Shown here piece after piece: positions 2,202-64,000 of a stretch of 64,000 nt of DNA. Made by a program: the position numbers and the translations under genes. Every line of letters begins with the position of its first letter. Position 1 is the first letter of the stretch. The notes beneath the pieces were generated by a model. It had not been told where the DNA came from and did not search any database. It worked only from the letters and a program-made list of their open reading frames with translations. Location: IMG/VR virus record IMGVR_UViG_3300005973_000002, one strand, 5' to 3'. The DNA comes from a virus. Taxonomy: Duplodnaviria; Caudoviricetes.

Positions 2202-2268
2202 CAATAGTCGGATTTTTCCTTTATCTATTCGTAACCCATACTTATTCATGTTGCCTAAGAGGACCAAC

Positions 2269-26654: not shown

Positions 26655-27026
26655 TTGGATACCTGGTATACTCGATCAATGGGATTCCTAAGTAAATTCT
26701 TTAAAAAGAAAATAAAAAAACCGACAAGGGAAGTTTTAAAAGAGCTAATTCCTGGCGATTTAGTTTACATTAAGTTTAAAGCACCTCCCGATATTGGAAT
26801 TGTCAGTGGACATGACTTATCATTAATGAGGCTAAACCCCTTAGAAGCCTCTAAAAGAGAAATTGTGGGCACAATTTCTTTTAACAAAACAATGGAAGCT
26901 CCTTTGTTTTCTAGAGTAATTGAAATAGTAACCTTATCAAGTCCAGATATGCCTGGCAAAACCAGAAGAATGACATTCTTAGAAGATGAAATTGAGATTG
27001 TGAGGAAAATAAAAAATGAGCAATGA
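26655..27026 (+). CDS. hypothetical protein
   Basis: 123-aa ORF. Confidence 0.6.
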   Translation: MDTWYTRSMGFLSKFFKKKIKKPTREVLKELIPGDLVYIKFKAPPDIGIVSGHDLSLMRLNPLEASKREIVGTISFNKTMEAPLFSRVIEIVTLSSPDMPGKTRRMTFLEDEIEIVRKIKNEQ

Positions 27027-27747
27027 TGCTAACGAAAACACATTTGGAGTTGACAATAAAGTTGAACTGATCGGGTATTATGGATCAGACCTGACTCATG
27101 CCTTGTCCGCTTGGACATCCACTTCACGTGATCTTGACACGGTAGACAAAAACGGCAAAACAAAACGAGAACGTGCTCCAGCATTACTCAACATGTTGGC
27201 CTCTGAGGGCCATCATTCTCCCTTTGAAAAAAGCTCACTGCATTTTTTAGTGACTTCAGATATCGCAAGCCACATTCATATTTTGAAACATCGTGTAGGA
27301 GTTTCTGTCAATGGAGAAAGTGCAAGATACAAAGAATTAAAAGATGATAAGCTTTACATGCCCTTGGAATGGCCAGAAGAAGAGAAAGAAAATTATCTTC
27401 GTCACATGGAAGAGACATACAGAAATTATCACAGATCATTAAAGTCTCTCACAGAACACTATATTTCAGTTGAAGGACTTGATAAGCGAAATGCTCGAAA
27501 ACGTGCTAAAGAGTGTGCAAGGTTTTACTTGCCTTATGGCAATCAAATTACTTGTGATGTAATGTTTAATTTTCGAAGTTTTGCTCACTTTATTAATCTT
27601 CGATATAGTAATCATGCACAAAGAGAAATTTGTAATCTTGCAAGACAAATGCTTGAGCAGGTTCAAGCAACAGGAGACTTTGACGAAACATTAAAAGCTT
27701 TTGGATTTGTAGACAACAATGGTGTAATCGTTCCACCATTTGAATAA
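27016..27747 (+). CDS. thyX: FAD-dependent thymidylate synthase
   Basis: GHHSPFE, KHRVGVSVNGESARY, ARFYLP, NFRSF..FI.LR, AQREI. Confidence 0.95.
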   Translation: MSNDANENTFGVDNKVELIGYYGSDLTHALSAWTSTSRDLDTVDKNGKTKRERAPALLNMLASEGHHSPFEKSSLHFLVTSDIASHIHILKHRVGVSVNGESARYKELKDDKLYMPLEWPEEEKENYLRHMEETYRNYHRSLKSLTEHYISVEGLDKRNARKRAKECARFYLPYGNQITCDVMFNFRSFAHFINLRYSNHAQREICNLARQMLEQVQATGDFDETLKAFGFVDNNGVIVPPFE

Positions 27748-28674: not shown

Positions 28675-29547
28675 ATGAATAAAACTCAAACTAATTTTGT
28701 AATCTTTAGCAAAGACAGAGCTTGTCAGTTACATGCTTGCCTTGAGTCCCTGAGTAAACACTTCAAGAGTGATAAAGAACCAACAACTACGATTATTTAC
28801 AAGGCATCTACACCAGAGTTTGACAATGGATATGAAAAACTAAAACAGTCGTTTCCAGAAACTGATAATTTTGTTTGGGCTCCCGAGAAGGATTTCAAAC
28901 ATCAGACCGTTAAGGCAGTGCATGGATTTCCATGGGCACCGTCACAATTCACAATATTTCTTGTGGACGATATTATTTTCGTCAATGACGTCAATACGTC
29001 TGATAAACAATTTGAACTTATTCGTAATAATTCAATGATCGTTGGCATAAGTCTAAGACTTCACAATGGAGTAAATCATTGTTACGCAACAAACGAAATT
29101 CAAAACGTACCACGGTTTGTAAAAGATGTTGTTTGGGCCTGGGATCAATGTAATGGCGATTGGGGTTATCCAATGTCAGTAGATGGCAATGTTTACAACA
29201 CTGATTTCATTTCTTCTTTTGTTGACAGTCTTGATTATTACAATCCAAATACATTTGAAGCGGCTCTAGACTCAGTTAAGCATCAAACAAACATACCGTC
29301 ATATCTTTGTTGTTATCCAGAAGCTCCCAAGCTTATTAATGTTCCAGCCAATCGAGTTCAAAGTGCATATAAAAATCGATATGCAAAAGGATACACAGTT
29401 GAAGAGTTGAATAAATTTTATCTTGAAGGTAGAACAATTGATGTTGATGCTTATCAAGGTTTAAAGCCAAACACGGTTCATGTGCCAATCGATCTTAAGT
29501 TTAAAGATGATAGCAGCTACAATATGCAAGTAGCATTTACAGGATAA
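28675..29547 (+). CDS. GT-A-fold glycosyltransferase-like protein
   Basis: IFSKDRA.QL...LES, FLVDD, WGYPMSVDG motifs. Confidence 0.65.
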   Translation: MNKTQTNFVIFSKDRACQLHACLESLSKHFKSDKEPTTTIIYKASTPEFDNGYEKLKQSFPETDNFVWAPEKDFKHQTVKAVHGFPWAPSQFTIFLVDDIIFVNDVNTSDKQFELIRNNSMIVGISLRLHNGVNHCYATNEIQNVPRFVKDVVWAWDQCNGDWGYPMSVDGNVYNTDFISSFVDSLDYYNPNTFEAALDSVKHQTNIPSYLCCYPEAPKLINVPANRVQSAYKNRYAKGYTVEELNKFYLEGRTIDVDAYQGLKPNTVHVPIDLKFKDDSSYNMQVAFTG

Positions 29548-29643: not shown

Positions 29644-30357
29644 ATGGACATGAAATGTATATTTGAAGGAAATGCTAATAAGGGTGGTGTTTATCAAATC
29701 ACAAACAAGATTAATAAAAAGACCTACATTGGCAGTGCCAAATGCTTTAAGAAGAGAGCTTACCAACATCGTTCCGCATTGAGAAATGGGAAACATCACA
29801 ACAAACATTTACAACGTGCTTTTAACAAGTACGGCAAAGAAGCGTTTGAATTTAGAGTGTTACAAGTGACTGAAGGCAATAGAGACAGTAGACTAAAAGA
29901 AGAACAAAAATATCTTAATAATTTTCTTCTAGAAGATAGATGGAATTTGTGTTATAATTTATTAAAACAATCTAATTGTGGAAATGGTTTCATCGAAAAC
30001 ATTGGCAAAATACCTTGGAATAAGGGAAAAACAAATATCTATTCCGAAGAAACCCTACTAAAAATAAGCAATTCTGTAAAAACAAGTGGAAACCCAAATT
30101 GGGGAAAGGCTCGTTCACAAGAAACTAAAGAAAAAATTGCAAAAAAGAATAAAGGTGAGAAAAACGGAATGTATGGTAAAATAGGAAAAAAACATCCACG
30201 AGCGAAGTCATACAATCTTCTATCTCCCGAAGGAAAGAATTTTAAAGGAATTGGTCTTAGAAATTTTTGTAATGAACATGGATTGGACCAAAGATCAATG
30301 TGGAGAGTCATTTCAGGTCAAAGAAATCATTACAAGGGATGGAGAAAGTGTAATTAA
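29644..30357 (+). CDS. free-standing GIY-YIG homing endonuclease with NUMOD3-like repeats
   Basis: GVYQI...YIGSA, H...L, PWNKGK, SQETKEKI, C-terminal HTH. Confidence 0.92.
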   Translation: MDMKCIFEGNANKGGVYQITNKINKKTYIGSAKCFKKRAYQHRSALRNGKHHNKHLQRAFNKYGKEAFEFRVLQVTEGNRDSRLKEEQKYLNNFLLEDRWNLCYNLLKQSNCGNGFIENIGKIPWNKGKTNIYSEETLLKISNSVKTSGNPNWGKARSQETKEKIAKKNKGEKNGMYGKIGKKHPRAKSYNLLSPEGKNFKGIGLRNFCNEHGLDQRSMWRVISGQRNHYKGWRKCN

Positions 30358-31001
30358 TGTATATTTCAATGAAACAATGTATTGAATCAATTGGTCATCC
30401 AATACGTGGAATTATTCACATCGGTGCGCACCGAGGTCAAGAGGCCGAAGACTATGCTAACAATGGCGTGAAAGAAGTTCTTTGGGTCGAGGCCAACAAG
30501 AAAATGATGAAGCACCTTTATGACAAAACATGCAATGTGCCTACCAAGTCACACTACTTTTGCGCAACCCTCTCAGACAGGGATAATGAAACAGTAACTC
30601 TAAATGTTACCAATAACGAGCAATCGACATCCATCCTTGAACTTGGAACTCATGCAACTATGTATCCCCATATCACCATCTCGGAAAGGATACAGGTTCA
30701 AACCAAACGATTTGAAACTCTTTGGAGAGAGAATGTAAATGAAATCGATTTAGACTCTTATGATTTTGTAAATATTGATGTACAAGGTGCGGAATTAAAA
30801 GTTCTAAAAGGCTTTGGTGAAATCTGGAATAGAGTTCCTATTAGAGCAGTATATGCAGAAGTTAATTTTGAACATGTTTACAAAGGTTGTTGCTTGGTTG
30901 AAGACCTCGACGAGTACCTTGGCGAATTTGGATTCCAAAGAGTGCTTACAGCCGCCCCTGAAGGAACATGGGGTGACGCCTTATATTTGCGGAGAGTCTA
31001 A
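30357..31001 (+). CDS. FkbM-family methyltransferase
   Basis: IHIGAHRGQE, WVEAN, IDVQGAELKVLKG, EVN, WGDALY. Confidence 0.92.
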   Translation: MYISMKQCIESIGHPIRGIIHIGAHRGQEAEDYANNGVKEVLWVEANKKMMKHLYDKTCNVPTKSHYFCATLSDRDNETVTLNVTNNEQSTSILELGTHATMYPHITISERIQVQTKRFETLWRENVNEIDLDSYDFVNIDVQGAELKVLKGFGEIWNRVPIRAVYAEVNFEHVYKGCCLVEDLDEYLGEFGFQRVLTAAPEGTWGDALYLRRV

Positions 31002-37127: not shown

Positions 37128-38012
37128 CTATTGAAGCTTCCAAACATAACCTTTGTATGATTTATTGTATTTTATTGCTAAACTAATTCCATTATATTGA
37201 CAATTGTTTTGTCGTGCGGCTTCGCTCATACTTGGCCAAACTTTGATCAGTTTGCCTGTTGGTTCAAACTGTTTAACAGGTTTAGCATTATTGTAACACA
37301 ATTTTCTATTTTCATTTAATTGTGCATGAGATGATAGCCTATCGTCGACAATATCTTTTGAATCAGGCCAGCGCCAATAAAATCCACCGACGGTTCGATG
37401 CGGATTTTGGTTGATGGAATAGGAAATATTGCGCCAACTTTTATATCCAATTCCAAGACCAGCTTGTCTGGTCGATGGCCAGTTTTTAATAACTTTACCT
37501 GTTTGAGGGCAAATTTGTAAAACTTCTTTCGAAGTTGCTTTTCCGCCTGGGTTGTACTTTCTAAGTTTTTCTTTATGTTCTTTTGTATGTTTGGTTGGAA
37601 TGATTTCCCCCGTTTCTAACTTTAGTTTACGAGTTTTTGATATTTTTTTCCTTGTTTCTTCGGGAGTTTGTGACCATGGACCTTCTTTTTGAATGACTTT
37701 TCTCTTGTGGTTCAAAAAATTTGAATCATCCCAAAATTTGTCAACATATTGTTGTTCGACAGTTCTTCTTTTCAGAGTTGTTCCTTCAATTGTTTCAATA
37801 ACTTCAAACAAAAATTCCTCTGGCTTATATTTGGACCATAAATGCAACAAATGCTTGTTATGATGTTTTCCTACATTTAATCTGCTTTGATGCTGTGAGG
37901 CTCTAACTTTGAAGCGCTTCGCACTTCCAATATAAAATTTGCTAGTTGTTAAATGTGTTATTTTATATATTCCACCTTTGTTAGCATCTCCTTTAAACTC
38001 TTTCTTCGTAAT
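37128..38012 (-). CDS. GIY-YIG homing endonuclease with NUMOD/HTH repeats; start codon out of frame
   Basis: frame open from ATT 38012: KGDANKGGIYKI..FYIGSA; nearest ATG (38016) is shifted by 1 nt. Confidence 0.85.
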   Translation of the reverse strand: MTKKEFKGDANKGGIYKITHLTTSKFYIGSAKRFKVRASQHQSRLNVGKHHNKHLLHLWSKYKPEEFLFEVIETIEGTTLKRRTVEQQYVDKFWDDSNFLNHKRKVIQKEGPWSQTPEETRKKISKTRKLKLETGEIIPTKHTKEHKEKLRKYNPGGKATSKEVLQICPQTGKVIKNWPSTRQAGLGIGYKSWRNISYSINQNPHRTVGGFYWRWPDSKDIVDDRLSSHAQLNENRKLCYNNAKPVKQFEPTGKLIKVWPSMSEAARQNNCQYNGISLAIKYNKSYKGYVWKLQ

Positions 38013-40428: not shown

Positions 40429-41319
40429 TCAAATACTTGTCCAACCCTTATATTCTTCTTGCTTTCCTCTGGCTACTCTGCTCATTACTTGAGGAATAAG
40501 TTTAATTGAAGACTTCGCACAAAACTCTTGCATATTTGTGATAATAACTACTTCACCCTCTGGATTGCGAAGCTTATATGTCTTCTGTTTTAATTTTCGT
40601 AATCTATCTGAAGCTCGTTTTTTTCGTGCTTCATCTTTTGCCCAAGAACGCTTTCGACCTTCAATTACCTTTTCTCGGTACTCAGGATCTTGCCAAAGCT
40701 TCTTATTGAGCTTAGATACAGATTTAGAAATCTTCTTACGTGTTTCCTTTGAAACCTCTTTGCCTTGAGCAGCTTTAGACAGCTTTTTACGGTACTCAGG
40801 CTTCTGTGTAAAATTTCGGATGGCCTCAACATGTTTCTCTCGGTACTCAGCGTCTTGCCAAAGCTCTTTCGTCTTCTTCGATTGAAACTCACTTTGAAAC
40901 TTACGATATTCGGGGTCTTTCCACCTTTTTTTCATTGAAATTGACATCTTCTTTCGAGTTTCTTTTGGAGTTTTTGAACGACACGAACGTCCGTTTCGGT
41001 TTGTTTTTTTGTCTATGTTATAGCACTTTTGCTGACTGTCATAGTGTTTATTGATTAGTTGTTGTTCAACTAGAAGTCTTGCTTTTTGTTCGCCCAATAC
41101 AACTTTAACAACATGAAATTCAAATGAAGACTCACCACATTTATTAAAATCATGTTGTAGAAACCGATTGGAATGTCGATTTTCCTGCAAAGCTTTTAGA
41201 TGTTCGGTAGAACGTTGCTTGAATACTTTACAGGAACCAATGTAAATGCGACCATTGGATATGTTGATTATTTTGTAGACGCCTGATTTGTTTGAATGTC
41301 CGTTGTATACTCTTTTCAT
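40429..41319 (-). CDS. third GIY-YIG homing endonuclease with WxDPEYR repeats
   Basis: SGVYKI..IYIGS, repeated W.D.EYR.K and SKETRKKIS, C-terminal HTH. Confidence 0.92.
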   Translation of the reverse strand: MKRVYNGHSNKSGVYKIINISNGRIYIGSCKVFKQRSTEHLKALQENRHSNRFLQHDFNKCGESSFEFHVVKVVLGEQKARLLVEQQLINKHYDSQQKCYNIDKKTNRNGRSCRSKTPKETRKKMSISMKKRWKDPEYRKFQSEFQSKKTKELWQDAEYREKHVEAIRNFTQKPEYRKKLSKAAQGKEVSKETRKKISKSVSKLNKKLWQDPEYREKVIEGRKRSWAKDEARKKRASDRLRKLKQKTYKLRNPEGEVVIITNMQEFCAKSSIKLIPQVMSRVARGKQEEYKGWTSI

Positions 41320-53621: not shown

Positions 53622-54521
53622 ATGTCCAAACCATATGATTATGAAAAAAGTGTAGCATTAATCTACGAAAATGATTCGCATCGTGGACCAGGCAAAGTGG
53701 TTCAAAATCTAAAACTTGGCCTTGAGAAGATTGGTGTTTCGGTTATTCCTGAATATAGTGGCCACCCTTGGAAGTACACAGGTTGCTTACAGTTTTGTAA
53801 GCCGCAATTAATTTCAAGTTATGCATCTACTGGACGCCCTATGCTCATGGGCCCGAACTTGTTTGTTTTACCTACCGATAATCCATCTCTGTGCAAGCTA
53901 TTCCAGCACTTTGTTGTGCCATCTGAGTGGGTGAAAAAAACGTATCAAGAATTTGATTTGATGAATGGAAAAAACATTCATGTTTGGTCTGTTGGTATTG
54001 ACACTGATGTTTGGAAACCGTCCGAGCAAGGTAAAACAGGTGATATAGATTGCATCGTTTACTTTAAAAATCGTTCCGACCAAGACCTAGCTGTTGTTGA
54101 AGCGATTTGTCGAAAATTTGATTTAAAGTATGAGCTTTTCAAATATGGCAGTTATCTAGAACAGGATCTGCATAAGTCAGCCACAACAAAAGCCAAGTTT
54201 GCTATTCTTTGCACGGGAACAGAGAGTCAAGGTATTGCTTACATGCAGTTACTTTCGGCTGGGTTACCTTGTTATGTTTTTAACAATCCACTTTGGAAAT
54301 CTGAAGACGGGAAACATACAGCAGTAGCTTCTTCTGTGCCATATTTTGACGAACGTTGCGGATACGTAATCAACAACGTTGATCTTGATCACTTCAAAGA
54401 GTTCTTAAAAAATATTGATAATTTTCATCCAAGAGACTATATCCTAGATAAACACACTCTTGAAGAAGCAGCACAAAAATACTTTGACCTGTTGAGAACA
54501 AGCAATGGCGAACAACTCTGA
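53622..54521 (+). CDS. GT-B (GT4-like) glycosyltransferase
   Basis: VPSEWV, GIDTD.WKP, ESQGIA....SAG.P. Confidence 0.7.
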   Translation: MSKPYDYEKSVALIYENDSHRGPGKVVQNLKLGLEKIGVSVIPEYSGHPWKYTGCLQFCKPQLISSYASTGRPMLMGPNLFVLPTDNPSLCKLFQHFVVPSEWVKKTYQEFDLMNGKNIHVWSVGIDTDVWKPSEQGKTGDIDCIVYFKNRSDQDLAVVEAICRKFDLKYELFKYGSYLEQDLHKSATTKAKFAILCTGTESQGIAYMQLLSAGLPCYVFNNPLWKSEDGKHTAVASSVPYFDERCGYVINNVDLDHFKEFLKNIDNFHPRDYILDKHTLEEAAQKYFDLLRTSNGEQL

Positions 54522-55371
54522 AAAACCACTAGTATCTTGCATAACCCCATCTTTCCGCATGGAGAGATACCTTAAAACCTTTCTGGATCGATTGCCGGAG
54601 CAAACTATTTTTGATCGAATACAAGTGGTGCTTGATCATAATGAACCAACTGAACAAGAACTTTCCTGGGTTAAAGAATTTGAAGAAAAGTATCCTGGAG
54701 TTATCAAACACGTTGTGGTTGATCCGGTAGAGCCAATTGGTATTTCAATGAACCGTTGCATTAATTTGGCTGATGGAGATTTTGTTGCCATTTGGAACGT
54801 TGATGACTTACGCACTCCTGATAGTCTTGAAAAACAAGCTAATGTCTTGTTAGAAAATGAAGATGTTGATGTTGTGCATGGTAACTTTGTTATTGTTAAT
54901 TCATTTCCCCATTTCAAGGGAAAGATGATTGATCATAGTCAATACAAGTTCAATCAAAAAGAATATACACGCAGTATGGTTCTTGGGCCATTTTTTATGT
55001 GGCGCAAATCTCTTTGCGACAAGGCAGGAAAATTTGACGAGCAATTGAAGTCTGGAGCTGATTTTGATCTTGCAATCCGGTTGGCAATACACGGTAAAGT
55101 TGATATAGCGCACGGAGTGCTTGGCTACTACCTTGACGAAGGCCGGGGGGCTTCAACACGTGGTGACAGCATTCAACCAATTGAACGTACCTTGATTGAA
55201 ATGAGATACGGAATATTGGATAAACTTGTTCACAGTTGGATGCCCGAAGTGAACAAAAGAAAATACATTGTAGAAAAACTAGTCTTTGATAATAAAGCAC
55301 ACCGAATTGAAGATTATGTTCCGGACTATTCAAACTTTCGGCACAGAAACACCAAGCTGGCCAAATCCTGA
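54505..55371 (+). CDS. GT2 glycosyltransferase
   Basis: VSCITPSF, N..I..A.GDFV...DD, DFDL.IRL. Confidence 0.9.
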   Translation: MANNSEKPLVSCITPSFRMERYLKTFLDRLPEQTIFDRIQVVLDHNEPTEQELSWVKEFEEKYPGVIKHVVVDPVEPIGISMNRCINLADGDFVAIWNVDDLRTPDSLEKQANVLLENEDVDVVHGNFVIVNSFPHFKGKMIDHSQYKFNQKEYTRSMVLGPFFMWRKSLCDKAGKFDEQLKSGADFDLAIRLAIHGKVDIAHGVLGYYLDEGRGASTRGDSIQPIERTLIEMRYGILDKLVHSWMPEVNKRKYIVEKLVFDNKAHRIEDYVPDYSNFRHRNTKLAKS

Positions 55372-55380
55372 GAGGAAAGC

Positions 55381-56274
55381 ATGACAGAAAAAATGAGAAT
55401 TATGGCTTTATTGCCATTTCGAAATGAAGCCCATGTGCTTCCATCTTATTTTTCAACCGTTGCTCCACTGGTTGAAAAGATTATTGCAATTGATGATGGT
55501 TCCACAGACAATTCAGTAGAAATTATGAAAAAGGCTGGTGCTGACGTTTATTCTTGGGACAAAGAAAGAATGAAGTTCGGTTGGGCTGAATTGGGTATCC
55601 GGCAAAGACTTTTGGAGTTGGGCCGTGAGGCTGGAGGTACTCATTTTATTGTTTTAGATGCTGATGAAACGTTTACTCGCCCCTTTGTGGGAGTTTCGAC
55701 CAAAGTTTTCCGACAACTGGAGCCTGGTCAAAAAGTTTTAATGCAATGGTTAGCAATGTGGAAATCCGTTGACCATTACCGAGATGACAATAGTGTATGG
55801 AGTAACAACTATAAAGATTTCATTTTTAGGGATGATGGCGAAAGCAACTATCCAGAAGTTTGGATGCATACTCCACGAACTCCGGGTCGATTTGCGAATC
55901 ATGACCAAGATTTGACATTAAATCCAAAGTATGGTGCAGTAATGCACTTTCAATTTAGCAACTGGGATACATTTCAAATCAAACAGTGCTGGTGTCGAAT
56001 GTCTGAATTTATCAAAGATCCAGAATCGGCACAAAATGTCAATAACAAATATAGGATAACACTAGATGAAGATGCTGTAGTAATGCCACTGCCCGACAAT
56101 TGGAAAGAGGGCGTAAAACTACCAAAAATATCTTACCAAGATGACGTTTATTCTTTTTGGCGCTTAAAGGAAATAGAAAACTGGTTTGAAATTCATGGTG
56201 TAGATTTTTTCCGCAACCTAGAAATCTGGCATGTGCCACAAATTTGTGAGGTATCAAAGCGTTATGAAAAGTAA
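55381..56274 (+). CDS. GT2-like glycosyltransferase
   Basis: FRNEA, AIDDGSTDNS, LDADE, MHF. Confidence 0.85.
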   Translation: MTEKMRIMALLPFRNEAHVLPSYFSTVAPLVEKIIAIDDGSTDNSVEIMKKAGADVYSWDKERMKFGWAELGIRQRLLELGREAGGTHFIVLDADETFTRPFVGVSTKVFRQLEPGQKVLMQWLAMWKSVDHYRDDNSVWSNNYKDFIFRDDGESNYPEVWMHTPRTPGRFANHDQDLTLNPKYGAVMHFQFSNWDTFQIKQCWCRMSEFIKDPESAQNVNNKYRITLDEDAVVMPLPDNWKEGVKLPKISYQDDVYSFWRLKEIENWFEIHGVDFFRNLEIWHVPQICEVSKRYEK

Positions 56275-57256
56275 AGCACTTGTTACAGGCGCCGCAGGGT
56301 TATTTGGTGCTAACTACTGCAAATATCTTTGTGATAAGGGTTATGAAGTCATTGGAATGGACAACCTGTCTGGTGGTTATCGAGACTTTGTAGATTCACG
56401 TGTAGAATTCTACCCCTGGGATATAAAACACACTTTTAGCGTCAACGAAGTATTTGAAGCACACAAACCGGACTACGTTGTTCATTTTGCGGCATACGCA
56501 GCGTGTGGATTGTCGCCGTTTATTCGTATTTTTAACTACGAAAACAACATCATTACGTCTGCCAATCTAATCAACGAAGCCATTCGCTTTGATGTCAAGA
56601 AATTCATTTTTGCGTCGTCAATGACCGTTTATGGTGATAATCCACCGCCTTTTACCGAGGACATGCCTTACAATCCCTCAGACCCATATGCTATAGCTAA
56701 AATGGCTGTTGAACTTGATTTAAAAGATGCCCACCAGCGCCATGGGTTAGATTATGCAATTGTGCGCCCACATAACGTACATGGTATATATCAAAATATA
56801 TGGGATCGCTATCGTAACGTAATTGGGATCTTCATACGAAAAGCTCTCAACGAAGAGGACTTGCTTGTTTATGGTGATGGTTCACAAATTAGAGCATTTT
56901 CGGATGTAAAATACTATATGGAACCAATTGAGAAGTTAATGTTCGAACATTCAGCAGAAACATTTAATATTGGTGCAGATAAACCAGTAACCATCCTAGA
57001 GCTTGCACAGTTGGTACAAAAAGTGGCTTTCGAATACGGTTACAAAACAAACATCAAACATGCTGAGCCAAGAAAAGAAGTTCATACGGCCTACTGTGAT
57101 CATAGCAAGGCAAAGAAACTTTTAGATTTTGAGGATAAAACCGACCTAGAAGAACTTATTCGTAAAATGTTTGTTTGGGCAGAAGGTCAACCAAACAGAA
57201 AAGTTAAAAAGATGGACATTGAACTAGATAAAAGACTTTATTCATACTGGAAATAG
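56264..57256 (+). CDS. NAD-dependent epimerase/dehydratase
   Basis: GAAGLFG, ASS..VYG, YAIAK, RPHNV.G. Confidence 0.93.
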   Translation: MKSKALVTGAAGLFGANYCKYLCDKGYEVIGMDNLSGGYRDFVDSRVEFYPWDIKHTFSVNEVFEAHKPDYVVHFAAYAACGLSPFIRIFNYENNIITSANLINEAIRFDVKKFIFASSMTVYGDNPPPFTEDMPYNPSDPYAIAKMAVELDLKDAHQRHGLDYAIVRPHNVHGIYQNIWDRYRNVIGIFIRKALNEEDLLVYGDGSQIRAFSDVKYYMEPIEKLMFEHSAETFNIGADKPVTILELAQLVQKVAFEYGYKTNIKHAEPRKEVHTAYCDHSKAKKLLDFEDKTDLEELIRKMFVWAEGQPNRKVKKMDIELDKRLYSYWK

Positions 57257-57257
57257 T

Positions 57258-58127
57258 ATGAAGTTTATTCACGTTCAATACGACATCATACAATCTGATT
57301 GGAAGGTGTTGCAAGTAGGCGGATCACGTCAACCGTTCCGACGTGCTAATGTTGTTATTGATCCACGTCCATGGGCAGAACGCAGCAAAACAAATTCCTG
57401 GGTTCAAACCATTCCGGAATATTTTTCCGAAAGGACTTGGTTTACGCAGCCGCTCGAAGAAACTCCTTGGCCTTTTGCTGATGAAGAGTTTGATTATGTT
57501 ATAGTTGACGATGCTATCGTTTCAACACGTGATCCGATTGCAGTTTGTCGTGAGATGGAACGGGTTGCCAAGCGTGGATATATTGAATTTCCTAATGTAG
57601 TTGCACAGCATCTACGTGGTGTTGAAGACCCAAATTATACCGGATACATCAATCATCGTTGGTTCGCTGACGTGGTGGACAATGCCATTCGCTTTAGTTA
57701 TAAACACCCTTCGGTGCATGTTAAAAAAGACTTTTGGATAGACAATCCAAAGTTACCAGTGCAGCCCTGGATTAATCCAAAGAAGGCGGTGGAAGGTCTG
57801 TTTTGGGATGCAAGTCTTCAATCTTATGAAGATTATGAAAATATGGAATTTCCAGACTGGTTCTTCGAAGAAAACACTTGGAAATATAAAGAGCAAACTG
57901 CAAATGAACAGCAGTTTAAAAACTTTTGGAAGGTTGATGAACCAATCCCAGTCATGTTGGAATGTAGACCATTTCAGGCTGGCACTTTAGTTCGAGTAAA
58001 TGATTTGCCATTTAAATTTGCCGTTTCAATGTTCACAAATAAAAATGAGCGACACATGGAAATGTTGAAATTCGAGCATTACATCGCAGAGAACATAAAC
58101 AATAAATACCATAAGTACCAACTTTAA
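57258..58127 (+). CDS. class I methyltransferase-like protein
   Basis: VLQVGG, PWPFADEEFD, DP.....E..RV.K.GYIE.P. Confidence 0.7.
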   Translation: MKFIHVQYDIIQSDWKVLQVGGSRQPFRRANVVIDPRPWAERSKTNSWVQTIPEYFSERTWFTQPLEETPWPFADEEFDYVIVDDAIVSTRDPIAVCREMERVAKRGYIEFPNVVAQHLRGVEDPNYTGYINHRWFADVVDNAIRFSYKHPSVHVKKDFWIDNPKLPVQPWINPKKAVEGLFWDASLQSYEDYENMEFPDWFFEENTWKYKEQTANEQQFKNFWKVDEPIPVMLECRPFQAGTLVRVNDLPFKFAVSMFTNKNERHMEMLKFEHYIAENINNKYHKYQL

Positions 58128-58130
58128 TAC

Positions 58131-58730
58131 ATGAATTCGAAATATAAAAAAGAAAACTATGTTCACCTTGAAGATCATTGGAAAAAATATATGCCCAATG
58201 TTCTTTTTCAGCACTACAGAAAACTTTTTCAAGGCAAAATAGGAGATTTTGGCTGTAATACTGGGTTGTTTGATATCCATCTCGCAGAAATGGAAAGAGT
58301 AAACGAAGTTATTGGCTTTGATATAAATGAAGAAGCTATTAAAAAGGCAAAAGAATTTGCAGCAGTTTCACCAGTAAAATCAAAACTAAAATTTCACTGT
58401 CAAAACCTAACAGAAAAAATTGAATACGACAGTTACTTTGATTTTGTTATTTGTTTCCACACTATAGAACACATCTACCCTGAAGATGTTGATGATTGTG
58501 TACGTAATATTTTTACCTCGCTTAAAGTAGGGGGCTATGCACTGATAAATTTGCCTGATAAGCATTCATATCCTTGGGAGGAAACTCACGTATTCCATCC
58601 CAACAAAGAAGAATTATCAAAGCTCTTCGAAGTGCACGGTTTCTCTACGGTTGAAGCTTATGAAGATGAGCGAGGTGGCCAAGTTGGACACTCAAGAAAC
58701 ATCACTGCACTTTACCTAAAGGAGTTGTAA
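58131..58730 (+). CDS. class I SAM-dependent methyltransferase
   Basis: DFGCNTG, GFDIN, FD.V...HTIEH, LKVGG. Confidence 0.9.
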   Translation: MNSKYKKENYVHLEDHWKKYMPNVLFQHYRKLFQGKIGDFGCNTGLFDIHLAEMERVNEVIGFDINEEAIKKAKEFAAVSPVKSKLKFHCQNLTEKIEYDSYFDFVICFHTIEHIYPEDVDDCVRNIFTSLKVGGYALINLPDKHSYPWEETHVFHPNKEELSKLFEVHGFSTVEAYEDERGGQVGHSRNITALYLKEL

Positions 58731-59468
58731 ATGAATTTGGTGGCAAAAAATACATGGATTTTGCACCCGACTTCGGGTCATCCAAACAAAAATACGTTTG
58801 AAACACCTTGGTATAAATCTCCCATTAGAACAAAGGATGTTCCCATCTTTACGGGGTTTTTCAGGGTCGGAAATCATTATCTAATTGAATTGATTCAACG
58901 TTATTTTGAAGCTAATGTTTGGATTGATGGTAGGTTAAAGCCAGAAAACATTATATGCTTCTGGACCCATGATCATGATCATTGCTTGGAGGCTATAACA
59001 CCATGTATGTTTTTATACAGGAAAAATGTATGCCACATGATGTATTCTTTATATAAAAGTCAATATGTCGAGGCTAAAGCGTGTGATGTTAATGTAGAAA
59101 ATTTTATAAAATATAGAGTTAATGATTATAAATACAATACAAATAAATGGCTTAGGAATGCTGATTTAATAATTGAATATGAAAAGCTTGTTTATAAACC
59201 TCAAGAAGAATTTAAAAAAATTGCACAGTTTTTTGGAAAGTTATTTGTTCAAGAAAAATTTGAAAGGGTAAAGAAGGTTATCACACATGATTACGTAATC
59301 GGCAAGTGGAAGAATACGTTGCCAAACTATTTTTTTCATCGGGATGCAAACTACGTCCCTGACAGAAATAAATGGATTGAAAAATTTAAGCCCACTATTT
59401 TTAAACACTTTTTTGATGAAACGCACACTCCTGTTGGTAACTTGGCTGAATTTCTCACTTTAGAATGA
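58731..59468 (+). CDS. sulfotransferase-like protein
   Basis: GFFRVGNHYL (5'-PSB-like), R....MYS (3'-PB-like), IEYEKL..KP..E..KI..FFG. Confidence 0.65.
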   Translation: MNLVAKNTWILHPTSGHPNKNTFETPWYKSPIRTKDVPIFTGFFRVGNHYLIELIQRYFEANVWIDGRLKPENIICFWTHDHDHCLEAITPCMFLYRKNVCHMMYSLYKSQYVEAKACDVNVENFIKYRVNDYKYNTNKWLRNADLIIEYEKLVYKPQEEFKKIAQFFGKLFVQEKFERVKKVITHDYVIGKWKNTLPNYFFHRDANYVPDRNKWIEKFKPTIFKHFFDETHTPVGNLAEFLTLE

Positions 59469-60403
59469 TGTATGTAGCAAAATGTCCTTTGAGAATTTCT
59501 CTTGTTGGAGGAGGGACAGACCTTGATAATTTTATTAAAAAATACGGCAAAGGTTCAGTTATTAGCTTCCCTTCAACGCTTTATGTTTATGTTAGTATTC
59601 ATGATAACAACCGAAGTCAATATGTCCTAAACTATTCTAAGAACGAAGAAGTAGATGAATTATATGAAGTACAAAACACGCCTGCAAGAATAGTTCTTGG
59701 TCACTACAACACTGGACCAATTACTGTCTCGTTTCTTTCAGACATTATTTCCACAGGCTCAGGACTGGGCTCCTCTTCAGCTTACATGAATGCGCTAACG
59801 AAAGCTGTAACAATGTATAAGAGTGAACAGTTGACTGAATTTGAAGTTTGTAGACAAGCACTGGAACTTGAAAGAAAGTTCAATCCCGAGACTGGCTATC
59901 AAGATTCATATGGCTGTGGCGTTGGAGGATTCAAGCGCATCAACTTTATCAAAGATAGACGTCCCAATTTTTCGTTTTTAGATGGTGATTTTCTTAGAGA
60001 CAATTTTGACATGGCTCTCTATTACACAAAAATAACAAGAGACTCAAATGATATTTTAAAAACGATAAACACAGACCGTTGCTTGCCGCTTCTTACAATG
60101 GTTGATGATCTCGAACAAGCCATAGAAGAACAAAATACTGAAGGTTTCCTTGAAATATTCAACAGAGGTTGGGACATTAAAAAGACAACGTCACCATTAA
60201 TCGCAGATGATGAAAGGTTTCAGAAGTGGAATGAAGAGTTTCAGAAGCACAAAGATGTTCTCGGAATCAAACTTTGCGGAGCTGGTGGTGGTGGTTATTT
60301 TCTAGCTCTATGTAAGAAAGGCTGTGCGCCTAAACAAATAAATGGTTCACAAGCAATACCAATTGGAGTCAACGAAACTGGAGTAGTTGGCCAGAGGTTT
60401 TAA
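59465..60403 (+). CDS. hddA: GHMP sugar kinase, heptose-7-phosphate kinase-like
   Basis: PLRIS..GGGTD, GSGLGSSSA, G.QD.Y....GG, GAGGGG. Confidence 0.85.
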   Translation: MMYVAKCPLRISLVGGGTDLDNFIKKYGKGSVISFPSTLYVYVSIHDNNRSQYVLNYSKNEEVDELYEVQNTPARIVLGHYNTGPITVSFLSDIISTGSGLGSSSAYMNALTKAVTMYKSEQLTEFEVCRQALELERKFNPETGYQDSYGCGVGGFKRINFIKDRRPNFSFLDGDFLRDNFDMALYYTKITRDSNDILKTINTDRCLPLLTMVDDLEQAIEEQNTEGFLEIFNRGWDIKKTTSPLIADDERFQKWNEEFQKHKDVLGIKLCGAGGGGYFLALCKKGCAPKQINGSQAIPIGVNETGVVGQRF

Positions 60404-60912
60404 TGAACAAAGATGAATTGATAAGAGAAATAGAAAAGGTGTATTCTAAATCTGGTGCGCTTAAAAGCTTGATAGAAGACCATGAGGAAATCATTCTAAT
60501 TGGCAATGGAGCAAGTTGTGCCATAGCTAGCCACATGGCTGTCGATTACACCAAGCAATTAAAAAAGAAAGCATTTGCATTCACTGATGCTTCTAGACTT
60601 ACTTGTTATGTAAATGACTACGGTAGCAATAGAGCTTATGCACAATTTGTAAAAGAATTCGCAACTCCTGGAAAGACTTTAGTGATCCTGATCTCATCAT
60701 CAGGAAACTCCAAGAATATAACGAACGCAGCTAATCGTTGTGAGATTGATGGAGTGGCTTGGGTAGCTTTGTCTGGCAAAGATCACGACAACAAACTTCA
60801 TAGAACCAACTACATGTATAGGAAGTTAAATGTTTGGGTAGAAAGCCAAGACTACGGTGTGGTAGAATGTGTTCATCAAATTCTTTTGCACTCAATTATG
60901 GAAGTAAAGTAA
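60403..60912 (+). CDS. gmhA: SIS-domain phosphoheptose isomerase-like protein
   Basis: GNGAS..IASH, ND, ISSSGNS.NI, YG.VE..H. Confidence 0.8.
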   Translation: MNKDELIREIEKVYSKSGALKSLIEDHEEIILIGNGASCAIASHMAVDYTKQLKKKAFAFTDASRLTCYVNDYGSNRAYAQFVKEFATPGKTLVILISSSGNSKNITNAANRCEIDGVAWVALSGKDHDNKLHRTNYMYRKLNVWVESQDYGVVECVHQILLHSIMEVK

Positions 60913-61619
60913 TGGCAACTTTCTGTTTTGACATTGATGGAACAATCTGCACCAATACACTTGGCAAGTATTTGAACGCAAAGCCTTATCCTGATATGTT
61001 ACGACGCATTAATAATCTGTATGACTGTGGACACACCATCATTTTTATGACCGCAAGAGGATGTGTATCTCATGTTGATTATACAGAATTGACAGAAAAA
61101 CAGCTGAATGAATGGGGATTTAAATACCACAAATTAATCACAAATCAGAAGCCGCATGCAGATTTGTTTATTGACGACCGAGCCGTAAATGTGTGCGAAT
61201 GGCGGACTTTGGGTAAAAGAATTGGTTTTGTTGCTAGTTCTTTTGATCTGATTCATCCAGGATACATTATAATGCTCAAAGAAGCCAAGACGGTTTGTGA
61301 GCATCTTGTCTGTGCTCTTCATGTAGATCCATCCACAGAAAGAGACTCAAAAAACCAACCCATACAAACACTTGAAGAGCGGCTGATGGTTTTAGAATCA
61401 ATTCGTTATGTTGACGAAGTTATTATATATAAATCAGAAGATGATTTGTACCAACTTCTTAAAGAAATTTCTCCAGATGTTCGTATTCTTGGCAGTGATT
61501 ACAAAGAAAAAGATTTTACAGGTTCAGATCTCAGTATAGAAATACATTGGCATAACAGAGACCATAGCTGGTCAACGTCAAATCTCAGGCGGAGGATCGC
61601 TAACGCCGAAAACAAATAA
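60912..61619 (+). CDS. HAD phosphatase fused to HIGH-family nucleotidyltransferase
   Basis: FDIDGTIC...FIDD, then FDLIHPGY...R...L.SIRYVDEV...G.DY...STS. Confidence 0.85.
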   Translation: MATFCFDIDGTICTNTLGKYLNAKPYPDMLRRINNLYDCGHTIIFMTARGCVSHVDYTELTEKQLNEWGFKYHKLITNQKPHADLFIDDRAVNVCEWRTLGKRIGFVASSFDLIHPGYIIMLKEAKTVCEHLVCALHVDPSTERDSKNQPIQTLEERLMVLESIRYVDEVIIYKSEDDLYQLLKEISPDVRILGSDYKEKDFTGSDLSIEIHWHNRDHSWSTSNLRRRIANAENK

Positions 61620-61658
61620 ACTCCTGAAGTATAACCTTAGAACAACGACAGGTGTTTC

Positions 61659-62567
61659 ATGAAAAAGGTACTCGTAACAGGTGGCGCAGGGTTCATTGGT
61701 TCAAACGTTGTTGATCTTCTAGTAGAGAAAGGCCATGATGTTATCGTGGTAGATAATCTTTCTACTGGTTATACTGAAAACTTAAATCCTAAAGCTAAAT
61801 TTTGCAATTTAGATTTGCTTGACAGTAAATTGCTTTTTAAAAAAATGTTGACCGAGTTTGGTCAAATTGATGTTGTGTTTCATCTAGCTGCATTGCCAAG
61901 AGTTGAGCCGAGTATTCATGACCCCGTTGGCTCAAACGAACAGAATGTCACAGCAACACTAAACCTATTTGAAGCTTGTAGGAAAGCGGGAGTTAAAAAT
62001 ATAATCTATTCGTCTTCATCGTCAGTATATGGCGACGCCAAAAATGTTCCAACTGATGAAAACGAACCTGTTGATCCGATGAGTCCTTATGCCTTACAAA
62101 AGCTCATCGGCGATCAATATGCAGAACTGTTCTGTAGGCTATACGATATGAACATCACCTGCCTTCGTTACTTTAACGTCTATGGAAATCGAGAGCCTAC
62201 TGTTGGCGCTTATGTGCCTGTAATCGGTATTTGGTTTAGACAGCTTGCCGAAGGTAAACCTTTGACCATAACAGGAGATGGTAGACAAAGCCGAGATTTT
62301 GTTAACGTGCTTGACGTAGCGAAAGCAAATGTTATGTCTGCCGAAGCTGGATTGAGAGGATATAATGTTTTTAACATTGGTTCAGGAACTACACACGAAC
62401 TAAATTATTTAGCATTACTTATTTCTAAGAACATAACATACATTGCACCAAGGATGGAACCTAGACACACGTGTGCTGATATTTCTCTCATGAAAAACAT
62501 GATTGGATGGAAATCAACTATTAATATTAAAGCCTACATTAGAGAAAAGGTAAGAAATTTAAAATGA
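61659..62567 (+). CDS. NAD-dependent epimerase (UDP-Glc 4-epimerase-like)
   Basis: GGAGFIG, SSSSVYG, SPYALQK, LRYFNVYG, RDFV.V.D. Confidence 0.95.
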   Translation: MKKVLVTGGAGFIGSNVVDLLVEKGHDVIVVDNLSTGYTENLNPKAKFCNLDLLDSKLLFKKMLTEFGQIDVVFHLAALPRVEPSIHDPVGSNEQNVTATLNLFEACRKAGVKNIIYSSSSSVYGDAKNVPTDENEPVDPMSPYALQKLIGDQYAELFCRLYDMNITCLRYFNVYGNREPTVGAYVPVIGIWFRQLAEGKPLTITGDGRQSRDFVNVLDVAKANVMSAEAGLRGYNVFNIGSGTTHELNYLALLISKNITYIAPRMEPRHTCADISLMKNMIGWKSTINIKAYIREKVRNLK

Positions 62568-63299
62568 AGACTAAAACTTTACAGGATATATAAAAGAATA
62601 CGAAGATACGGAACTGTGCAATAGTTCAATTATTCTAGACTTTAATCTAGGAACCGATTCTGTTTCTTGGTTAAAAAATCACAGAGATTTTATTGAAACA
62701 TCTTATAAAAAGGGAGTCATCTATGGACATGGAGCAAGATGTTTGCAATACATGTGGAAACTGATCGTGGACCAAATGCCATCTGATTTTTCATTTTTAG
62801 AAATAGGAGTTTACAAAGGTCAAATTTTATCTTTAATTGAGTTATGTGCAAATAAAACAGAAAAAAATTCCAAAATGGTAGGGGTAACTCCACTTTTCGA
62901 TCCTGATTTTGCCAAGTATAACCGCATGCCTTATATTGAAGGAATATTTAAAAACTTTTCACTTACGATGGAAAACACGACCATCATTGATGGAAAGTCA
63001 CAAGATGAAAAGATTGTTGAAAAAGTAAATAATTTAGGTCCGTTTAATATTGTTTATATCGATGGAGATCACTCATATCAGGCAACTGTTGATGACATCA
63101 AAATTATGATAAATGTTTAAAATCGGGCGGTTTTATGATTGTGGATGATGCTAGTAATTTTAAAAAAATCCCAACTTACGCAAGTTCCTTCAAAGGAATC
63201 ATTGAAGTTTCAGAGGCAGTTAGAGATACCCTTGAGAAGGATTCATCTTATGAAGACTTGCTTACCTGTATGCATGTTCGCATTTTTAGAAAGAAATAA
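62564..63299 (+). pseudogene. Methyltransf_24-like methyltransferase with two 1-nt frameshifts
   Basis: FLEIGVYKGQ, IDGDHSY, then LKSGGFMIVDD in a shifted frame; restoring one nt near 62587 and one near 63100 gives a continuous ORF. Confidence 0.75.
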
Positions 63300-64000
63300 T
63301 GATGGAAAAGATAAAAATTGCATTCATTAAATTTTGTGGTTTGGCAGCAGGCGGAACTGAAAAGGCATTGCAAACCATTGCGGCAAATCTTCCGAAGGAT
63401 CGATTTGAAGTAGATTACTATTATTGTGACGCTGCACCATACCTTGGTTCGGATTACAAACATGCCGACACTGATCCATATAGAAAAGCTTATATGGAAA
63501 GTAAAAATGTGAATCTTGTAAAATTTAGTGTCGCCTATAAAGACGTGAGAGATTCAACACACAAATGGATCGATACTAATTTTTGGGAAATGTTTGATGA
63601 AAACAGGTATGACATCATTCAAACCGCCCGAGCAGGTCATCCAGAATATCCTTTTACTCAAATAAATTCAACTCCTCAAGTGGACTTGGTCACATTGCCT
63701 GGAATGGCTGAAAACAAAGTTAATGTAGTTAAAACTGTTCATATTTCAAAGCACCAAGCAGAAACTTGGGTCAAAGCTGGAGGAAATCCTAGTAAAATTG
63801 AAGTTATCCCACTATTTGATGAGCTTCCGACACCACCTAAATTGAACTTTAGAAAGGAATTTAAATTAGAAAATAAATTTGTGTTTGGCTTACATCAGAG
63901 AGTCGATGATGGAATTTTTTCTCCAATTCCATTAACAGCATTCAAAAAGCTTGAAGTCGAATTTGATAATGTTGCTTTCTTATTACTTGGTGGAAGCGAC
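63299..64000 (+). CDS. GT4-like glycosyltransferase, 5' part (runs off window)
   Basis: KIAFIKFCGLAAGGTEKALQTIA N-terminus; open to window end. Confidence 0.75.
   Translation, partial: MMEKIKIAFIKFCGLAAGGTEKALQTIAANLPKDRFEVDYYYCDAAPYLGSDYKHADTDPYRKAYMESKNVNLVKFSVAYKDVRDSTHKWIDTNFWEMFDENRYDIIQTARAGHPEYPFTQINSTPQVDLVTLPGMAENKVNVVKTVHISKHQAETWVKAGGNPSKIEVIPLFDELPTPPKLNFRKEFKLENKFVFGLHQRVDDGIFSPIPLTAFKKLEVEFDNVAFLLLGGSD

Follow-up and report, generated by a model that had tools for sequence, protein, structure and literature searches.

What would a tailed phage build with 16.6 kb of sugar-handling genes, and onto which molecule would the product be placed? The question is raised by a 64,000-nucleotide (nt) stretch of the virus record IMGVR_UViG_3300005973_000002 (Duplodnaviria; Caudoviricetes), hereafter the window, in which a preliminary description made from the sequence alone had noticed a glycan-building cluster of at least 10 kb directly after the baseplate genes. 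We found that the placement is right by position and that the length holds as a lower bound but was an underestimate: the island proper, whose end was read from identical contigs, spans window-equivalent positions 53622-70233 and contains 18 genes and one pseudogene. From 53622 to the window end, the genes form an unbroken run on the + strand that encodes only glycan enzymes; inside the window, they are spaced by -17 to +39 nt, and most are intact and translationally coupled. We are nearly certain that this island is a genuine glycan-biosynthesis locus of the phage, accessory and operon-like.

The source is an uncultured, T4-related jumbo phage of ~461 kb, and the sequencing runs that carry its sequence are hypersaline-lake metagenomes. 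Contigs of 181 kb and 461 kb match the window without a difference along 12,342 nt, and exactly the same window proteins occur on contigs of up to 461 kb. Its phage hallmark genes encode ribonucleotide reductase, DnaB, RecA/UvsX, single-stranded DNA-binding protein, primase, ThyX, the baseplate hub, and the tape measure. A chimera with host DNA, against which the preliminary description had cautioned, was looked for and excluded: the junction is shared by three related jumbo-phage contigs, phage genes are present, and the GC content of the island (0.384) is similar to that of the rest of the window (0.397).

Glycan islands of large phages are an established class, to which this one belongs. 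Like those of cyanomyoviruses, it is a large cluster of glycosyltransferase (GT) and nucleoside diphosphate (NDP)-sugar genes that has homology to cultured cyanophages and varies among lineages. Its presence in a tailed phage, earlier called remarkable, has precedents in the homologous and partly syntenic clusters of the cultured T4-like cyanophages SynMITS9220M01, P-SSM2, P-TIM68, and S-CAM1/3. Three of its features deserve further study, namely, a hybrid heptose cassette, a strain-variable sulfotransferase, and a split arrangement around the tail module.

Enzymes of the island and of its detached pair

The features are collected in Table 1; counting the enzyme encoded at 28675, the module as a whole provides seven GTs and five members of the short-chain dehydrogenase/reductase (SDR) family.

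Table 1. Features of the glycan module and its surroundings. Positions are those of the window; past its end, they are those of contig L008 where given.
Feature	Position	Strand	Support or remark
GT-D/GT-A-like glycosyltransferase (predicted)	28675..29547	+	Atlas model
GIY-YIG homing endonuclease, not a glycan gene	29644..30357	+	TIGR01453, E 2.5e-27, above cut-off
FkbM-family methyltransferase	30357..31001	+	TIGR01444, 56.7 bits vs cut-off 37.7
Tape measure, 1534 aa	from 41777		followed by an 1102-aa protein
Small baseplate-spike/wedge-like protein, 97 aa	49887..50180	+	phrog_7145, phrog_1269 'baseplate wedge subunit', E 2.5e-6
Putative phage-only tail-module protein, 1080 aa	50329..53571	+	no family match; precedes the island in all close relatives
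GT-B fold glycosyltransferase (GT4-like), 299 aa, island gene 1	53622..54521	+	AlphaFold2 fold, Foldseek; Pfam weak
GT2 glycosyltransferase	54505..55371	+	PF00535, E 6e-11, above Pfam cut-off
GT2 glycosyltransferase (GT2_297)	55381..56274	+	PF00535, E 8.7e-9, above Pfam cut-off
SDR NDP-sugar epimerase/dehydratase (SDR330)	56231..57256 (gene callers start: 56264)	+	PF01370, E 4.5e-49
MetW-like class I methyltransferase	57258..58127	+	PF07021, 29.5 bits vs cut-off 21, short stretch
Class I methyltransferase, opens the five-gene variable block	58131..58730	+	Methyltransf_23/11/31/25, E about 1e-16
PAPS-type sulfotransferase (predicted), 245 aa, strain-variable	58731..59468	+	fold and homologue alignment
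HddA/WcbL-like GHMP heptose-7-phosphate kinase	59465..60403	+	NF049969, E 3.9e-25, below cut-off
GmhA-like sedoheptulose-7-phosphate isomerase (SIS)	60403..60912	+	TIGR00441, E 3.7e-16, below cut-off
HAD phosphatase-cytidylyltransferase-type nucleotidyltransferase fusion	60912..61619 (ATG start)	+	PF01467, E 4e-13; HAD weak
SDR epimerase (SDR302)	61659..62567	+	PF01370, E 4.6e-65
Methyltransf_24 pseudogene	62564..63299	+	two frameshifts, near 62590 and 63100
GT1 (GT-B) glycosyltransferase, 386 aa	63299..64000, cut by window end	+	PF00534
SDR of unclear type	beyond window end		identical contigs
GDP-L-fucose synthase Fcl	L008:13668-14606, just past window end		E 1.6e-78 to solved Fcl structures
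GDP-mannose 4,6-dehydratase Gmd	L008:14640-15629, just past window end		E 1e-108 to solved structures
GT1-like enzyme, 525 aa	L008:15698-17275 (window-equivalent 67356-68933)		phrog_2170, E 9e-13
GT1, 432 aa	beyond window end		identical contigs

The first GT was recognized by its fold: its AlphaFold2 model has a predicted local distance difference test (pLDDT) score of 94.5, and the top 50 Foldseek matches are all GTs (GT-B). They include GtfC and Gtf3, and other fold neighbors act on polysaccharides or small molecules. The first GT has 294 homologues, most of them encoded on contigs between tens and hundreds of kb long, is 28% identical to an open reading frame (ORF) of P-SSM2, and has a homologue in P-SSM5 too. 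The next enzyme, a GT2, has no transmembrane segment and is 56% identical in two other large contigs, L017 and L018. A GtrB-type bactoprenol transferase was considered for GT2_297 and rejected, as it lacks a transmembrane helix and resembles GtrB only over the N-terminal ~50 residues. The GT1 gene cut by the window end is complete (386 aa) in L008 (11641-12801) and in the relative L001 (PF00534, E 3e-15). Further on, the 525-aa GT carries KKKKK at residues 22-26 and a Lys/Ser/Thr-rich C-terminal tail of ~45 residues, of which the character, not the sequence, is kept in L015 and L016; these Lys-rich tails could bind membrane, DNA, or acidic proteins.

Among the SDR proteins, SDR330 has its best Protein Data Bank (PDB) matches in UDP-hexose 4-epimerases, and SDR302 in the 4-epimerases WbpP and WbgU. 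A role of SDR302 as HldD is not supported, since the 4-epimerases outscore HldD; the gene nevertheless travels with the heptose cassette and holds the same position in SynMITS9220M01, in L017, and in the bacterial locus L014. Gmd and Fcl together provide a GDP-L-fucose route.

The first methyltransferase of the island, predicted to use S-adenosylmethionine (SAM) as does the second, has VLQVGG as its motif I. In L001, L015, and L016, the Methyltransf_24 gene is unbroken and encodes 245 aa; here its homology is spread over three frames, with 62743-63120 representing the middle fragment, the true C-terminal piece ending at 63299, and the ORF at 63139-63330 being an out-of-frame overlap. The split calls are identical in six assemblies.

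As regards the sulfotransferase, the Pfam match on its own is weak (E 0.002), a word-based homologue search returned only the query, and a PDB sequence search returned nothing. An exhaustive HMMER search, in contrast to the word-based one, yielded 31 relatives; PF00685 is matched by all 27 of the homologues that were aligned, and R45, G47, H82, D83, R97, and S106 are invariant in the family alignment. The AlphaFold2 model (pLDDT 82) has only sulfotransferases that use 3'-phosphoadenosine-5'-phosphosulfate (PAPS) among its top 50 Foldseek matches. On fold, on the predicted PAPS-binding loop R45-x-G47, on H82 as the predicted catalytic His, and on R97 and S106 as the predicted binding residues for the 3'-phosphate, the product would thus be a PAPS sulfotransferase. 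It had no match among 50,697 phage records, and the gene is missing from L001, L015, and L016; in L020, a further large phage contig, a homologous island includes a sulfotransferase gene. Phage sulfotransferases of unknown role are on record (PMC10580990).

The enzyme inventory of the preliminary description largely stands. All four of its GTs are present (the first by fold, the next two by Pfam, and the last as an N-terminal part), its two epimerases correspond to the SDR genes at 56231-57256 and 61659-62567, the nucleotide-heptose pathway is represented by GmhA, an HddA-like kinase, and a HAD-nucleotidyltransferase, and the sulfotransferase was borne out by fold and alignment. Of the three methyltransferases, two are intact and the third is broken by its two frameshifts. 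The chemistry it envisaged, a methylated, sulfated, heptose-containing glycan, fits the gene content, with GDP-fucose in addition. One claim that failed is that of a self-sufficient pathway: there are no priming, export, polymerase, or ligase genes, and no supply of PAPS, sedoheptulose 7-phosphate, or GDP-mannose.

The other GT and the FkbM gene that had been placed at 28.7-31 kb are also there. No Pfam, NCBIfam, or PHROG family matches the 28675 product, and its Atlas model aligns with GT clusters that include the PF08759 GT-D family at TM-scores of 0.82-0.86. Homologues 37% and 28% identical to it lie just upstream of a GT-B/GT2/GT2 triad in L017 and L018, respectively. More specifically, the homologue stands directly beside the triad in L018, and in L017 two genes intervene, one of them an FkbM gene; this 53%-identical FkbM homologue is immediately ahead of the GT-B gene. 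After the triad, both L017 and L018 continue with a kinase, an isomerase, a methyltransferase, SDR302, and the 386-aa GT1. Judged by gene order, the detached pair is part of the island module, because both parts are contiguous in other phages; here, the two halves bracket the tail/baseplate block at 31.2-53.6 kb.

A hybrid cassette, probably for activated heptose

The kinase has its best PDB matches in 4n3o, 3k85, and 4usk (HddA, WcbL). For both the kinase and the GmhA-like isomerase, the similarity is clear and the scores are far under the equivalog cut-offs. Likewise, the HAD-nucleotidyltransferase matches TIGR02199 (rfaE domain II) at E 3.5e-24, with 85 bits against a cut-off of 181.5. Its HxGH site reads HPGY (FDLIHPGY), and its C-terminal motif is SWSTS, not GRSTT. 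The latter, 'STTR5', is a hallmark of promiscuous heptose nucleotidyltransferases (PMC11573728); given this divergence, the nucleotide carrier cannot be inferred. The fusion family has 628 homologues, and no characterization of it turned up in our searches.

Two routes to activated heptose offer themselves for comparison, the ADP-beta route (GmhA, HldE, GmhB, HldD) and the GDP-alpha route (GmhA, HddA, GmhB, HddC). The phage cassette would run through the same four steps, with enzymes of the same superfamilies, as either, but lacks one enzyme of each: no gene of the island encodes a PfkB-type kinase (HldE domain I), the kinase being of the GHMP type, and none matches the HddC-type NTP_transferase (PF00483). 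The layout is instead a hybrid, with a GHMP (HddA-type) kinase and an HldE domain II-like transferase that is fused to a HAD phosphatase. The cassette is probably a third, uncharacterized route to activated heptose. Viral NDP-heptose enzymes (HBEs) have been described by Tang et al. (PMC11573728).

The order HddA-GmhA-HAD/nucleotidyltransferase-SDR is syntenic with gp204-207 of the cultured Synechococcus phage SynMITS9220M01, at 41-44% identity: the kinase is 41.5% identical to gp204, the isomerase is syntenic with gp205, and the HAD-nucleotidyltransferase is 44% identical to gp206. In that phage, the cassette sits in a glycan cluster of ~22 kb, and its authors labeled the gp204-207 genes 'heptose-related lipopolysaccharide synthesis' (PMC7378029). 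Other phages with heptose genes are P-SSM2, P-SSM5, P-TIM68, S-CAM1/3, and Caulobacter phage Cr30.

The same kinase-isomerase-HAD/nucleotidyltransferase-SDR cassette is found in a bacterial locus (L014:8545-11645; CP023435.1, a 6-Mb genome), where it adjoins genes for Wzx, a GT2, a methyltransferase, and a Bac_transf priming enzyme. Also near it are hadABC-like, secE, nusG, rplK, and rplA genes, a neighborhood that looks mycobacterial.

Distribution and surroundings of the module

The loci with which the island was compared include the relatives L001, L015 (507 kb), and L016 (254 kb) and the phage contigs L017 (151 kb) and L018 (98 kb). The junction between the 1080-aa protein and the island is kept in L001, L015, and L016, as is the island backbone, at 60-92% protein identity, and the neighboring tail proteins are 61-85% identical in the same three. 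Five distant relatives (L002-L006) gave no tblastn match to any island gene; in one of them, L003, the tail gene is directly followed by polA, HD, RecA, and dUTPase genes. On these comparative grounds, the island is a lineage-specific accessory insertion. A megablast search of a phage collection with the island gave no matches, and a 40-kb relative was 9% complete by CheckV.

Within the island, L001 lacks exactly the five genes of 58131-61619 (i.e., methyltransferase, sulfotransferase, kinase, isomerase, and HAD-nucleotidyltransferase). The sulfotransferase slot has no gene in L015 and is occupied by a GT fragment in L016, which has two additional methyltransferases. In L001, the first GT gene (L001:13293-14871) is apparently frameshifted and shortened, beside an inserted HNH/NUMOD3 endonuclease gene, and Fcl (L001:22133-23068) has an in-frame TGA where the phage of the window has Glu. 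Such gain, loss, and swapping is typical of glycan loci. Unrelated phage lineages also carry the island, at 42-57% identity.

Upstream, the structural genes run in the order tape measure, 1102-aa protein, 97-aa spike-like protein, 1080-aa protein, and then the island. The gene for the 97-aa protein is kept ahead of the 1080-aa gene in L001-L004 and L006. The Atlas neighbors of the 1080-aa protein are viral only and all unnamed; the protein is 74% identical in L001, and homologues stand ahead of the island in L015 and L016. On the 3' side, a 149-aa protein with an N-terminal hydrophobic helix is followed by a gp55-like late sigma factor, one gene past the island (267 aa, basic; L008:18999-19802, window-equivalent 70657-71460; phrog_234, E 1.9e-5). 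Further on, the opposite strand carries homing endonucleases and large Ser/Thr-rich proteins, one of them with a LamG domain, and this convergent block of large proteins looks fibre-like. The LamG protein (1155 aa; L019:322-3789, opposite strand, ~17 kb past the window end) matches Laminin_G_3 and consists of Ser and Thr to 19%; it probably belongs to a tail fibre and could serve as a glycan acceptor.

Three observations concern the rest of the window. The large subunit of ribonucleotide reductase (1274 aa, 14119-17943) has a segment, residues ~733-886, that matches endonuclease and intein-type PHROGs and fits an intein. Free-standing homing endonucleases (GIY-YIG, HNH) are encoded at 29644-30357, 37128-37850 (-), and 40429-41319 (-). 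Finally, a Fe/Mn superoxide dismutase domain lies behind an N-terminal extension of ~100 residues at 2158-3180.

Acceptor of the glycan

The chemistry of the proposed pathway is read from the enzyme families. Sedoheptulose 7-phosphate would be isomerized by GmhA, the HddA-type kinase would phosphorylate C1, the HAD domain would remove the C7 phosphate, and the cytidylyltransferase-type domain would then activate the heptose, leaving an SDR to tailor the NDP-heptose afterwards. Gmd and Fcl would yield GDP-L-fucose, and other SDRs would give epimerized NDP-hexoses. From these precursors, the seven soluble GTs would build an oligosaccharide on the cytoplasmic side, to be decorated by SAM methyltransferases (two or three O-methyltransferases) and, in this strain, by the PAPS sulfotransferase; PAPS, SAM, sedoheptulose 7-phosphate, and GDP-mannose would be drawn from the host. 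The acceptor would be the virion proteins of the phage itself (tail, fibre, capsid), to which the glycan would be added in the cytoplasm at a late stage of infection. We put the probability of the complete reading, in which an autonomous cytoplasmic system coats tail, fibre, or capsid with a methylated, sulfated fucose/heptose oligosaccharide whose heptose comes by the hybrid route, at roughly 0.35. Virion proteins as the acceptor, taken by themselves, are our tentative preference, at somewhat short of even odds.

The argument starts from what the island does not encode. A hydropathy scan found no transmembrane segment among its products, and it contains no priming transferase, flippase, polymerase, ligase, or ABC exporter; with no membrane protein or export genes, the acceptor must be accessible from the cytoplasm. 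The bacterial locus L014, by contrast, combines the same heptose cassette with Wzx and Bac_transf. Several observations point to the virion. The tail/baseplate genes stand on one side of the island and the convergent block of Ser/Thr-rich, fibre-like proteins on the other, and the late sigma factor follows the island; the two halves of the module enclose the tail block here, whereas they adjoin each other in L017 and L018; the 28675 product has a GT-D fold, and GtfC and Gtf3 are fold neighbors of the first GT. GtfC, Gtf3, and the GT-D fold are associated with the cytoplasmic extension of protein O-glycans. On the whole, the evidence tilts mildly toward the virion.

There are precedents for such a target. 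Chloroviruses, mimiviruses, and some mycobacteriophages glycosylate their own virion proteins, and chlorovirus PBCV-1 encodes GMD, GMER, and soluble GTs with methyltransferase domains. The chlorovirus and mimivirus systems resemble the island in having a viral GDP-fucose route, several cytoplasmic GTs, sugar methyltransferases, and no export machinery; they differ in belonging to eukaryotic viruses with unrelated capsids. In mycobacteriophages, the account of Freeman et al. 2023 that is relayed in PMC12619734 describes, as here, soluble GTs and methyltransferases by structural genes, the outcome proposed being virion proteins coated with glycan; as relayed there, those systems have few GTs, use host sugar nucleotides, and place glycans at the C-termini of capsid and tail-tube proteins. 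By comparison, the present island would make its own activated sugars, and the tail proteins that we examined have no acceptor motif.

A number of points weigh against virion proteins as the acceptor. Here, no glycan has so far been seen on any virion. The tape measure, 1102-aa, 1080-aa, and hub proteins contain no Ser/Thr-rich tracts of the type that other systems glycosylate, and no acceptor tracts were found in the downstream proteins of 1155, 638, 419, 286, and 276 aa, the Ser/Thr content of which is generally high. A structural neighborhood is not general, since homologous islands elsewhere adjoin non-structural genes: in L017, L020, and one NCBI contig, the island lies by genes for an inosine monophosphate dehydrogenase-like protein, a PDDEXK nuclease, PhoH, and a CCA-adding enzyme. 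The T4-type late promoter TATAAATA occurs four times in the window against three expected, with none of the four copies located between a structural gene and its upstream neighbor; the variants ATATAAA, TATAAAT, ATAAATA, and TATAAA are not concentrated ahead of starts, and scans for sigma-70 promoters and terminators gave background levels. No inference on timing is drawn from these scans. There are also signs of decay, namely, the Methyltransf_24 pseudogene of the window and, in L001, the broken GT and the in-frame TGA in Fcl. Moreover, GTs that are soluble could just as well work on lipid A-core or on an undecaprenyl carrier at the inner membrane face, and the literature on the cyanophage homologues favors modification of the host cell surface (PMC1079782, PMC12801897).

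The last two points lead to the strongest alternative, which we consider unlikely on balance, namely, that the host envelope is remodeled: the oligosaccharide would be assembled on lipid A-core or on an undecaprenyl intermediate and exported by the host's MsbA/Lpt or Wzx/WaaL, either to exclude other phages or to keep progeny from adsorbing to debris. The enzyme families are all typical of O-antigen, core, and capsule loci, and the same heptose cassette serves in a bacterial polysaccharide locus with Wzx and a priming enzyme (L014). It is also the standard reading of the homologous clusters in cyanophages, which have been discussed since 2005 (PMC1079782, PMC3037559, PMC12801897): the 24 'LPS genes' (lipopolysaccharide genes) described in P-SSM2 in that year were read as modifying the host surface (PMC1079782), and a 2025 cyanophage paper adopts this reading again (PMC12801897). 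As noted, the neighbors of homologous islands in other phages are phoH or nucleotide-metabolism genes, not structural ones. Against this stands the absence of any membrane protein from the island. To our knowledge, one or more such proteins (GtrA/B/C, Oac, Wzy) occur in every phage seroconversion system characterized so far, so that in this respect the island, as scanned for hydropathy, differs from GtrABC, Oac, and phage Wzy systems alike. Similarly, surface-polysaccharide loci of the Wzx/Wzy or ABC type have a priming enzyme, a flippase or exporter, and a polymerase, and, like a ligase, all of these are missing here. In addition, the island would be a big investment for a lytic phage, for which small exclusion proteins would suffice, and it is embedded in the tail-gene region beside a late sigma factor.

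The cyanomyovirus clusters themselves (P-SSM2, S-SSM7, S-SM2, SynMITS9220M01, S-SCSM2R) are likewise large, variable blocks of GT, SDR, methyltransferase, and heptose genes, and both they and the present island are known from their genes alone. The differences are that the island described here belongs to a phage of ~461 kb from hypersaline lakes, lies within a tail/fibre region, with the tail module between its two parts, and has a sulfotransferase added that is unmatched in the phage records searched.

An improbable further possibility is that the island is dispensable or serves another purpose, either making a glycoconjugate that is soluble or linked to a lipid, such as a compatible solute or a decoy, or drifting as 'stuffer' cargo, an idea raised for cyanophage clusters by Sullivan et al. 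2010 (PMC3037559). The lesions listed above, the five-gene indel, and the variable sulfotransferase slot are the decay and flux that such a view would lead one to expect. However, backbone order and sequence were kept while tail proteins diverged to 60-75% identity, the island recurs at 42-57% identity in unrelated phage lineages, and most of its genes are intact and translationally coupled.

Least probable is hypermodification of DNA, with heptose glycans on hydroxymethylated pyrimidines that would counter restriction or CRISPR. Phage pathways for mono- and di-heptose on 5-hydroxymethylcytosine were rebuilt by Pyle et al. (bioRxiv 10.1101/2023.12.21.572611), whose clusters can adjoin structural genes and combine, as here, a HAD enzyme, a sugar kinase, a cytidylyltransferase, and GT-B enzymes; the conserved Lys-rich N- and C-terminal tails of the 525-aa GT could also bind nucleic acid. 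This possibility is countered by a module that, with 7 GTs, 5 SDRs, O-methyltransferases, and a sulfotransferase, is much larger than those clusters and goes far beyond the known DNA glycans of one to three sugars; by the lack, in the island and the window ORFs scanned (a part of the 461 kb), of a cytosine C5-methyltransferase, a TET-like dioxygenase (5mYOX), or a ThyA-type hydroxymethylase (ThyS); by a ThyX gene (27016-27747; PF02511, E 3.7e-36), which suggests ordinary thymine in the phage DNA; by the absence of T4 beta-GT from the 50 best fold matches of the first GT; and by the use of the same cassette in an ordinary polysaccharide locus (L014).

Large glycan islands of aquatic phages have been catalogued since 2005, and the target of their glycosylation has remained unexplained. 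The present example is unusually complete, with two sugar-nucleotide routes, seven GTs, and tailoring by methyl and sulfate groups; having no membrane parts and being wrapped around tail genes, it is a good test case for deciding between a virion coat and host-surface remodeling. Its heptose cassette is common to phages and bacteria, with hundreds of copies, and this route is open to direct testing in vitro without phage culture. If glycosylation of the virion is true, such a coating would also account for the 'LPS clusters' of marine cyanomyoviruses.

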